A stretch of DNA of 45,044 nucleotides. Source: a virus (taxonomy: Duplodnaviria; Heunggongvirae; Uroviricota; Caudoviricetes). The stretch lies in IMG/VR virus record IMGVR_UViG_2718217859_000007; one strand, given 5' to 3'. The first letter of the stretch is position 1; every line of letters starts with the position of its first letter. Below, in pieces: positions 27,438-28,935 of this stretch. The translations under genes were made by a program, and so were the position numbers. The notes beneath the pieces are model-generated. The model did not search any database. It saw nothing but the letters and a program-made list of their open reading frames with translations, and was not told where the DNA came from.

Positions 27438-27896
27438 TTAATTATCTGCCAACGTAACTATTTCACCCGCAGTATGTTCAAAACGTTCAGACTCAAGTTC
27501 AACGTCTAACGCCATGCGCCCCATTGCCAGTACTGCTTTTATTGTGGAGCCTGACCCCATGAAAAAGTCGGCAACCAAATCCCCCGGACGACTGCTGGAG
27601 GTAATTATCTGACGCAACATCTCCGCCGGTTTTTCACAGGGATGTTTGCCGGGGTAATACTGTACAGGCTTATGCATCCAGACATCCGTATACGGAACAG
27701 CAGCCGATACAGAAAAATAACGCCGCAGAGATTTGTACTCATCCAGCAGGTTGGCATATTGCCGGTTCAGTTCACTATATGTGCTGACCAGCTGGTGGTG
27801 TGGCTTTTCCAGTTCCCCGGTTAACGTGACACACCAATAACTCTTGTCGAAAAAGCCAGCAAGCTGAAAGACCGGTATTAATAACCACCAGCGCGT
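27438..27896 (-). pseudogene. DNA N6/N4 methyltransferase, 5'-truncated remnant
   Basis: C-terminal HPCEKPAEMLRQII..RPGDLVADFFMGSGST (motif I) present; frame open upstream to a stop at 27897-27899 with no start codon and no DPPY motif; abuts the duplicated tR'-like element. Confidence 0.65.
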
Positions 27897-27976
27897 TTAA
27901 TGTACCGCACCACTTTTCGGGCATAAAAAAACCGCTCAATGACGGGTAGTAAAAATTCTTTGTTACTCAGGTGATT
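27894..27976 (-). repeat. degenerate second copy of tR'-like element (direct repeat B)
   Basis: ~80% identical over ~80 bp to 28801-28880; hairpin degraded, T7 run retained. Confidence 0.7.
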
Positions 27977-28696
27977 TTAACGCACCCTGACAATGTTAAT
28001 TTCAAAATCATCAATATGTCCGCTATTAAGTATAACGAATTTCGTACTCCCACTTCTGTACGATTTTGATAACACAAGACGATCATCATAGCGTGCAAGA
28101 ACGTAATACCAGACATTATCATAGTGGATCGACTGATATTCCCTCTTAAACTGGGGTTTGTACCAACCGGCAATAAGAGAAAATGTCCAGAAATAAATCA
28201 TGAATCCAGCCATCATGAACTCAATTCGGTGATGGCGAATAAAAGATACTTCCGAAAAGCATTTGACTGAAATAAGTTTTCTTCCCGACCTGACAAAAAG
28301 CGTAATTGTAAAGGAAGCAATAACACAAAAAATCAGCACATCTGGCTCAACGTACTGATGAATGACCGAAAATTCCAGAACAGGTGGAATAAAAAGCAGC
28401 AATATTGCCAGAAAAAGTCTGATAAAACTCAAATTCTGTATATTGTTTTTTTGTTTTATACCTAAAAAGAAAACAATACCAACACCCCATCCAGTAAGGA
28501 ATATAACGATAACGGTCACAGCATAAAACAAACTCCGGGCCACATCATCAATGCCAGCCCCGACAACCCACCATGGAAAGCCATAGTAAAAGGAAGTACC
28601 CCATCCATAGAAATAAGCGCTTCCCCATCCAAGACAGCCCATATAAGCAATAAAAAGTGAAGAGTTCCTCAGTAGAGTACTGTCATCCATACCCAT
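27977..28696 (-). CDS. hypothetical multi-pass membrane protein (AT-rich cargo between tR' copies)
   Basis: 239 aa; ~4 predicted TM helices in N-terminal ~140 aa, soluble C-terminal ~90 aa; possible own promoter TTGACT-17-TTATGT upstream. Confidence 0.6.
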   Translation of the reverse strand: MGMDDSTLLRNSSLFIAYMGCLGWGSAYFYGWGTSFYYGFPWWVVGAGIDDVARSLFYAVTVIVIFLTGWGVGIVFFLGIKQKNNIQNLSFIRLFLAILLLFIPPVLEFSVIHQYVEPDVLIFCVIASFTITLFVRSGRKLISVKCFSEVSFIRHHRIEFMMAGFMIYFWTFSLIAGWYKPQFKREYQSIHYDNVWYYVLARYDDRLVLSKSYRSGSTKFVILNSGHIDDFEINIVRVR

Positions 28697-28800
28697 CTCT
28701 CTAACAATTTAAAAACATTGACTCACCTTACATAACAAAGGAGATTCCATGCAGTCAAGAGACTTCAGAGCAGGAGAAACTCATTGCACAATCGCCATCA

Positions 28801-28880
28801 CGTTTAACGTTATGCACCGCTTTTCGGGCACAAAAAACCCGCTCTATGGCGGGCTGTAAAAATTCTTCTAACGTCAGGCA
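28801..28880 (-). repeat. tR'-like element, direct repeat A
   Basis: Direct repeat of 27894-27976; contains the intact terminator hairpin. Confidence 0.7.
28832..28853 (-). terminator. tR'-like rho-independent terminator of the short pR' transcript
   Basis: Minus strand CCCGC-CATAGA-GCGGG followed by TTTTTT, ~65 nt downstream of predicted pR' start. Confidence 0.7.
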
Positions 28881-28902
28881 CAAAGCACTCATCATTAGGG
28901 AA

Positions 28903-28930
28903 ATTTTACCACAGATTCGGGAAAAATCAA
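28903..28930 (-). promoter_or_regulatory. late promoter pR'-like with presumed qut region
   Basis: Directly downstream of Q: -35 TTGATT, 16-nt spacer, -10 TAAAAT on minus strand. Confidence 0.55.
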
Positions 28931-28935
28931 CAACA

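Follow-up and report, generated by a model that had tools for sequence, protein, structure and literature searches.

The stretch of DNA analysed here (hereafter the window) is the 45,044-nucleotide (nt) virus record IMGVR_UViG_2718217859_000007, which comprises most of a lambdoid prophage with all phage genes on the minus strand. This study concerns the interval downstream of its late antiterminator gene Q (positions 27438-28935), where a gene for a multi-pass membrane protein lies between two copies of a terminator element and next to the remains of a DNA methylase gene. Coordinates are those of the whole window; loci of relatives, of which about 100 were surveyed, are labelled L001-L109 where a label is needed. 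In the order of transcription, the region contains a DUF968 gene, a RusA gene (30128-29754), Q, a promoter-like site, a terminator, the membrane-protein open reading frame (ORF), and the methylase-like frame. The latter ends at 27438 and is followed by genes for tRNA-Thr and tRNA-Gly, an ORF for 180 amino acids (aa), a TerB-like ORF, and holin and lysozyme ORFs (25461-24674).

Q (28936-29757, minus strand) encodes a 273-aa late antiterminator of the QuuQ type, which matches PF03589 (Antiterm, E = 1.7e-49) and phrog_127 (anti-termination protein Q-like). A consensus scan located a pR'-like late promoter just downstream (28903-28930, minus), with the -35 element TTGATT at 28930, a spacer of 16 nt, and a TG-extended -10 element, TAAAAT, ending at 28903. 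It is followed by an intrinsic terminator, tR' (28826-28855, minus), with a 7-bp GC-rich stem (28855-28836), a T-run, and a hairpin energy of -10 to -11.4 kcal/mol. Both elements had been proposed in a first-pass annotation made from the letters of the window, and both are in place. The promoter-like site is kept in relatives with the same Q type. The succession of a Q-family gene, a promoter-like site, and an intrinsic terminator, with lysis genes further downstream, points to a Q/pR'/tR' late-switch unit. In other lambdoid phages, pR' fires constitutively and transcription stops at tR' (PMC7547250). Following the lambda paradigm, Q would act on RNA polymerase starting at pR' (about 28930-28903), and polymerase would stop at tR' (28855-28826) when Q is absent.

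The first ORF beyond tR' spans 27977-28696 and encodes 239 aa when read from the upstream ATG. Since relatives do not conserve this first ATG, translation probably begins at the second ATG at 28690, which is also used in the RefSeq annotation and gives a gene at 27977-28690 (minus) with a 237-aa product. Its GC content of 38.6% is below those of Q (50.1%) and of the window (50.7%), and the protein has five hydrophobic segments. Hence, the AT-rich gene for a multi-pass membrane protein seen in the first-pass annotation is borne out, with a probable length of 237 aa and not 239. The ORF, its hydrophobicity, and a family match described below identify the product as an inner-membrane protein of the phrog_1521/PF27470 ('TfpB')/STM1630 family. 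The gene is under purifying selection, with a ratio of nonsynonymous to synonymous substitution rates of 0.12-0.19, and it is intact in 92 of 93 loci. Judged from these comparisons, it is a real, selected cargo gene. Upstream of it lies a promoter-like motif (28729-28758, minus) that we read as a -35 element TTGACT (28758-28753), an 18-nt spacer, and an extended -10 element TGnTATGTA (TG at 28737-28736, TATGTA at 28734-28729). In 85 of 94 loci, the motif TTGAC[TG]-N15-TTTGTTATG keeps a constant spacing to the start codon, despite diverged flanks. A CII-binding site, which is annotated upstream of the gene in the record of phage 434, was considered as an explanation of the motif and rejected because it fails in other loci. 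Since the gene appears to have its own conserved promoter motif, we expect it to be expressed at a low level in the lysogen and strongly, by Q-dependent read-through, after induction.

The gene is bracketed by a direct repeat. The first-pass annotation had described a degenerate copy of an approximately 80-bp stretch containing the terminator; alignment recovers the same element, about 10 nt away from where it had been placed (27894-27976 and 28801-28880), as 78 nt with 81% identity (27883-27960 versus 28790-28867, spacing 907; blastn E = 7e-16). The two copies share 10 nt upstream of the hairpin and 45 nt downstream of it. Copy A (28790-28867, minus), found by repeat search and blastn, comprises tR' and about 45 nt downstream, and it bounds the membrane-gene module on the 5' side. 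In a 76-nt context, the fold of this copy has z = -2.9. Copy B (27883-27960, minus), found by repeat search, folding, and blastn, consists of a decayed terminator and about 45 nt, and it forms the 5' boundary of a module that in relatives comprises a 65-aa gene and a methylase gene. The hairpin of copy B is gone: the best structure has -3.0 kcal/mol and the 76-nt fold has z = +0.75. The gene in the window thus has a terminator-derived element downstream, but one without a stable hairpin.

We compared the interval with complete Escherichia coli genomes by megablast. Fourteen prophages covered more than 80% of it at 93-97% identity, and the matching stretch was about 1 kb longer in all of them. 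The window itself has no host flanks, and its nearest relatives are all prophages of E. coli. In RM9088 and MFDS1022581, Q is followed by the same membrane gene (99% protein identity), copy B, the 65-aa gene, an intact 352-aa DNA methyltransferase gene, and the tRNA genes; in MFDS1022581, stx2gA and stx2gB come after the tRNA genes. About 35 other loci also have Q, the membrane gene, copy B, the 65-aa gene, and the intact methylase gene. In the prophage Stx2_EH1910, a Q of the same type is followed by one terminator element, the 65-aa gene, the full methylase gene, the tRNA genes, and stx2, and the membrane gene is lacking. Conversely, N63 and DG342-2 have the membrane gene without the methylase module. 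The membrane gene is thus present or absent among collinear relatives and deviates in base composition, as expected of a moron, and its cassette occupies the locus that holds stx in relatives. This part of the earlier proposal, a moron at the cargo locus between Q and S that is bracketed by tR' copies, is supported, and Stx2_EH1910 provides the empty site.

The single element of Stx2_EH1910 is collinear with copy A leftward, through pR' and the leader hairpin, and with copy B rightward, into the upstream region of the 65-aa gene. The terminator and 45-nt element is likewise found ahead of the 65-aa gene in phiP27, Stx2_14040, and a second prophage of RM9088 (L100; NZ_CP042298.1, 5201321-5211708), whichever gene is upstream. 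These upstream genes are unrelated: L22 in phiP27 and, in L100, a gene for a 272-aa CPBP-family intramembrane protease that sits in the slot between Q and the 65-aa gene (locus positions 2648-4502). An element similar to copy A precedes the membrane gene behind other Q types. Copy B was seen solely where the 65-aa module follows and is absent where tRNA genes directly follow the membrane gene (L003, L012; N63, DG342-2). The simplest reading of these comparisons is that the repeat is the shared 5' boundary of two alternative cargo modules, each able to stand first after tR', which were stacked by recombination. Alternatively, tR' could have been duplicated locally in tandem, with the cargo inserted later between the copies. 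The direct orientation of the copies and their common 10 nt upstream and 45 nt downstream of the hairpin would fit such an event, but the copies are just 81% identical to each other while their flanks are 97-100% identical to relatives. Moreover, identities to the corresponding elements of other phages are 85-94% for copy B and 92-100% for copy A, so that either copy resembles the element at its own position elsewhere more than it resembles the other copy beside it. Single-copy forms exist for each module. We consider a local duplication improbable.

Decay of the internal terminator is not confined to the window. Among 45 loci with the tandem layout, the copy B hairpin is strong in two (L010, L066) and decayed in 43, and it was destroyed by at least six different mutation patterns across these loci (L010, L011, L013, and L020-L023 are examples from the set). 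Of the hairpins nearest to Q, 65 out of 94 are strong. The loss of the internal terminator is repeated and independent.

The methylase-like frame is a remnant comprising the last 127 codons of a gene for a beta-class N6/N4 DNA methyltransferase (27438-27818, minus). Its PF01555 match covers only profile positions 160-218 of 221, i.e. the C-terminal quarter, and the translated frame aligns to residues 225-347 of the 352-aa relative. The DPPY motif of the relative (residue 35) is deleted in the window, and FMGSG (residue 310), the S-adenosylmethionine-binding motif I (FxGxG), is retained. There is no ATG, GTG, or TTG before the internal methionine codon that opens a 79-aa ORF in this frame. The alignment thus confirms the earlier description of a methylase frame that has motif I but neither a start codon nor DPPY, and it identifies a pseudogene.

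The first-pass annotation had copy B abutting this frame and attributed the loss of the methylase 5' end to insertion of the moron. On the first point, copy B and the first methylase-derived base (27818) are separated by 64 bases that are left over from the upstream region of the deleted 65-aa gene (27819-27882, minus), as shown by collinearity with L001, L006, and phiP27 that continues up to ...GTTAACC. In a base-level comparison, the window matches relatives to the left of the breakpoint as far as ...CACGTTAACC, some 17 nt short of the ATG that starts the 65-aa gene, and resumes to the right of it at methylase codon 225. Measured on RM9088, 1,037 bp are missing, starting 64 bp beyond copy B. 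The exact junction, 27819/27818, was found elsewhere solely in L078 (IMGVR_UViG_2734482777_000009), positions 1-4600 of which are 100% identical to window positions 28579-23980, junction included; L078 is probably the same genome as the window or a clone of it.

Viewed in the window alone, an insertion with tR' duplication that itself removed the methylase 5' end looks plausible, with copy B 64 bp from the remnant and a stop-free methylase frame that extends up to 27896. Comparison with related prophages speaks against it: relatives that share Q, the membrane gene, and both repeat copies with the window have a full methylase gene, and the cassette, copy B, the intact 65-aa gene, and the full methylase gene coexist in about 35 loci. 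In addition, the junction lies inside sequence that is collinear with relatives on both sides and is confined to the window and L078. Hence, the chance that the insertion damaged the methylase gene is minimal. Because relatives with the cassette keep the full methylase, the truncation is a separate, recent, lineage-specific deletion that was not caused by the insertion. The methylase gene of L100 is also a pseudogene, by a deletion different from that in the window, and the methylase appears to have been lost repeatedly. L100 is 95% identical to the window from 27590 rightwards, and the window consequently looks like a recombinant of two such prophage types.

Overall, we favour, with a probability of roughly three in four, the reading that the region is an ordinary mosaic, namely the late-operon cargo region of a lambdoid prophage with stacked modules, a moron that encodes an accessory protein of the envelope, and a later, separate deletion in the methylase gene. 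The first module after tR' would be the moron, an AT-rich gene of the TfpB/STM1630 family with its own sigma-70-like promoter motif. The second would be the 65-aa winged-helix gene with the DNA methylase gene, which has the same 5' boundary (a tR'-type terminator and about 45 nt) in other phages. Recombination between phages that each carried one module directly after tR' may have joined both in tandem and left the boundary twice. The internal copy would then have been free of selection to terminate, and it has lost its hairpin here and in most relatives. Later, the 65-aa gene and the first 224 methylase codons were removed by an illegitimate 1,037-bp deletion confined to this lineage, leaving a dead C-terminal remnant in front of the tRNA-Thr and tRNA-Gly genes.

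We next considered the membrane protein and its family. The protein matches phrog_1521 over residues 19-239 (E = 2.4e-84), which is annotated as of unknown function. All 108 homologues carry a precomputed PF27470 assignment with the label 'TfpB', and RefSeq sometimes names them 'STM1630 family protein'. The profile and structure searches suggested for the 239-aa product thus led to a catalogued family, and they found no relative of known function by sequence or fold. The family is small, with 71 clusters in an exhaustive profile search of 1.84 billion representatives, and its named members are from Enterobacteriaceae, Pasteurellaceae, and Neisseria. Matches were present in 452 of 5,426 complete E. 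coli genomes (about 8%) by megablast, 251 of them with a query coverage of 80% or more. Across about 90 related loci, the gene lies approximately 250 bp downstream of Q, which is of one of four types: 273 aa, 221 aa, Q82-like (including phage 434, 56% identity), or 126 aa. Downstream of it are the 65-aa gene with a methylase or helix-turn-helix (HTH) gene, or tRNA genes, TciB, or stx. The gene is present in Stx2d, Stx2g, and Stx2k prophages, often directly upstream of stx2 variants. Homologues also occur as single chromosomal genes in Haemophilus ducreyi, in Neisseria, and on a metagenome contig whose cluster relatives are from Gallibacterium, and a Klebsiella/Enterobacter subfamily sits in prophage-end cargo. 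A literature search under the homologue accessions, PF27470, and phrog_1521 found nothing, and matches to 'tfpB' were unrelated (chemistry, anaesthesia). The name tfpB probably refers to an ORF of the Moraxella pilin inversion region; no Moraxella proteins were among the homologue matches.

Several family members have unusual surroundings. In L026 (IMGVR_UViG_2541047907_000002) the order is Q, 65-aa gene, methylase gene, membrane gene, a second 65-aa gene, and an HTH gene, and in L087 (IMGVR_UViG_2859677112_000002) it is Q, a StxA homologue (54% identical to Stx2gA, possibly of Stx1 type), and the membrane gene (69%). Frameshifted or truncated copies are present in L009 (plasmid pU90-4 of an enterotoxigenic E. 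coli, NZ_CP068039.1, locus positions 4050-4762), about 870 bp from the heat-labile enterotoxin genes eltA/eltB, and in L008 (CFT073, locus positions 4001-4635), beside a tRNA-Arg gene near iroBC; both look like relics of lambdoid cargo regions. The Klebsiella loci L107-L109 (locus positions 5001-5738) contain a distant subfamily with 21-25% identity, which neighbours a SRAP (YedK-like) gene and umuDC and has genes for an integrase, a reverse transcriptase, and a DNA invertase nearby.

A first AlphaFold2 model made with 28 close homologues was poor, with a predicted local distance difference test (pLDDT) score of 60. When distant relatives from the exhaustive profile search were added to the alignment, the pLDDT rose to 80.3, with a predicted template modelling score of 0.71. 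In this model, five long helices, the predicted transmembrane segments, are joined by a beta domain of five strands at the C terminus (residues 184-235). The positive-inside rule suggests an N-in, C-out topology, which would place the beta domain in the periplasm, and we predict that this domain is a small, periplasmic, SH3-like beta-barrel. The model matched no known fold among PDB folds or in BFVD. Positions conserved across the family are aromatic and glycine residues in the first transmembrane segment and the first loop, and the whole-family alignment contained no invariant polar residue of the catalytic type, a pattern that favours binding or a structural role over enzymatic activity. On this basis, we take the membrane protein to be a non-enzymatic, envelope-acting accessory (lysogenic-conversion) protein.

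What such a protein does for the lysogen can be stated only tentatively. We see a niche or envelope fitness factor as a possible role, although at less than even odds; superinfection exclusion or defence is nearly as likely, some other function slightly less so, and a role in the lytic cycle improbable. The first-pass annotation had named the protein as a candidate superinfection-exclusion or abortive-infection factor. It could, for example, block DNA entry at the inner membrane like HK97 gp15 and P22 SieA. Consistent with this idea, the gene is a lysogen-type moron with its own promoter-like motif, the product is predicted to be an inner-membrane protein with a probable periplasmic domain, and the corresponding slot in the sister prophage L100 holds an intramembrane protease of the CPBP/Abi type. 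However, the sole match of the protein in PADLOC was AbiC, with 13 bits and E = 0.012 over the transmembrane stretch, which is not significant, and the homologues in Salmonella, H. ducreyi, Neisseria, and the Gallibacterium-related metagenome contig are single, chromosomal, non-phage genes outside defence islands. A role in exclusion is possible but less likely than not.

Alternatively, the gene could encode a true Q-dependent late lytic protein that affects lysis timing or the state of the membrane and is silent in the lysogen. It shares a transcription unit with the holin and endolysin genes and, being the first ORF after tR' in about 90 loci, would be heavily transcribed after Q antitermination. 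A promoter-like motif is nevertheless conserved between tR' and the gene, members of the family occur far from any lysis genes, and many related phages lack the gene. According to the annotation of the phage 434 record, the region from Q to the lysis genes is non-homologous in the variant 434B, which lacks the gene region, suggesting that this region is dispensable. A lytic function is quite improbable.

Several observations weigh against the mosaic reading or against parts of it. The promoter-like motif has a poor -10 element (TATGTA) and was omitted by the simple consensus scan, so that its promoter activity is presumed; the conserved motif could be another kind of site. The topology depends on the positive-inside rule and the AlphaFold2 model. 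The protein had no significant match in Pfam-A (a version without the PF27470 model), NCBIfam, PADLOC, PDB sequences, PDB folds, or BFVD. The order of events behind the tandem arrangement cannot be reconstructed, and a tR' duplication followed by insertion of cargo would look similar. Finally, deletion of the homologous Salmonella gene STM1630 caused no intramacrophage defect (bioRxiv 10.1101/689075).

STM1630 of Salmonella Typhimurium is 47-49% identical to the membrane protein over its full length and has the same architecture. Unlike the window gene, it is chromosomal, lies between the effector genes sseJ and steB, and has a different upstream region. It belongs to a cluster of genes that are co-regulated with virulence genes (PMC2639726), is induced in macrophages from its own promoter, and is inactivated by single-nucleotide polymorphisms in the promoter in ST313 (bioRxiv 10.1101/689075). 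A deletion mutant was hypermotile in one screen (PMC4219756).

A close counterpart in a classical phage is CPT_434_68 of phage 434, annotated as 'putative membrane protein' (OL657226.1), which is 56% identical, directly follows the Q gene and a terminator, and has the same TTGAC...TTTGTTATG motif. Unlike in the window, the Q upstream of it is Q82-like, TciB and a SASA esterase gene take the place of the 65-aa/methylase module downstream, and there is no second terminator copy. Short conserved boundary sequences, or linkers, between the modules of lambdoid phages favour mosaic recombination. The 80-100-bp segment that is common to the 5' ends of the two cargo modules and occurs behind different upstream genes resembles such linkers. 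In this case, unlike in plain linkers, the boundary is itself a functional element, tR', and tandem assembly consequently yields a redundant terminator that decays.

Phage morons, as described by Hendrix and colleagues, include lambda bor and lom and the superinfection-exclusion moron gp15 of HK97. The membrane gene shares with these classic morons its presence or absence among relatives, a deviant composition, its own promoter-like element, a terminator-type element downstream, and a product of the envelope. It differs in that it heads the late operon behind tR', not between tail genes, and in that its downstream terminator is a decayed copy of tR'; the protein has no sequence or fold similarity to the products of lambda bor and lom or to HK97 gp15. 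Like the cargo of phages with stx or type II heat-labile enterotoxin (LT-II) genes, it occupies the late-operon locus and belongs to the same transcription unit, and in relatives the string runs Q, membrane gene, 65-aa gene, methylase or HTH gene, tRNA genes, and stx2d, stx2g, or stx2k. Unlike these toxin genes, it does not encode a toxin and has its own promoter-like motif, and the window lacks stx. The feature is hence one more moron at the cargo site of a lambdoid late operon, beside a pseudogenised methylase gene.

The late switch has a parallel in StxS, the pR'-tR' transcript of Stx phages with a 144-aa Q, in which the interval is 258 nt and a 74-nt RNA is processed from it (PMC7547250). 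By analogy, the window should produce a short, constitutively terminated RNA of about 65 nt (28830-28896, minus) that is predicted to form a conserved 5' hairpin besides the terminator hairpin, and this RNA could be a constitutive prophage small RNA. Identity with StxS itself was set aside, judged without a sequence alignment, from the sizes of Q (273 versus 144 aa) and of the interval (about 65 versus 258 nt). An Rfam search of positions 25000-30500 at E <= 1, with the presence of a StxS model in Rfam unconfirmed, returned only the tRNAs and spurious hairpin matches.

The remainder of the region towards the lysis genes contains few further features. The genes for tRNA-Thr (TGT, 27248-27323) and tRNA-Gly (TCC, 27170-27244), both on the minus strand, are followed by a long inverted repeat at 26958-27046, which has 30-nt arms with 87% complementarity and a 29-nt gap; its sole match in Rfam was a spurious one to a plant microRNA precursor, well below threshold. 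The 180-aa ORF after the tRNA genes (26285-26827, minus) corresponds to phrog_5091, and few other surveyed loci have it by tblastn.

Our analysis corrects the account given for this prophage: the methylase gene was lost by an unrelated, lineage-specific deletion, and the apparent duplication of tR' probably came about when two modules with a common boundary were stacked. Beyond this prophage, the finding has a real but modest bearing. A small, strongly conserved, uncharacterised but catalogued family occupies the first position of the late operon; phage 434 has a member of it, and so does Salmonella (STM1630). A bolder view, which we rate as rather unlikely, is that the protein is a lysogen-expressed envelope factor, for exclusion or niche adaptation, that constitutes the commonest first cargo behind Q in many prophages of Shiga toxin-producing E. 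coli, and that its promoter may drive basal, Q-independent transcription of the downstream methylase gene, the tRNA genes, and, in relatives, stx2. Indeed, as the terminator behind the gene was lost repeatedly (43 of 45 loci), Q-independent transcription downstream of the membrane gene is possible, and the repeated decay of the internal terminator raises the question of whether such transcription extends into the toxin region.

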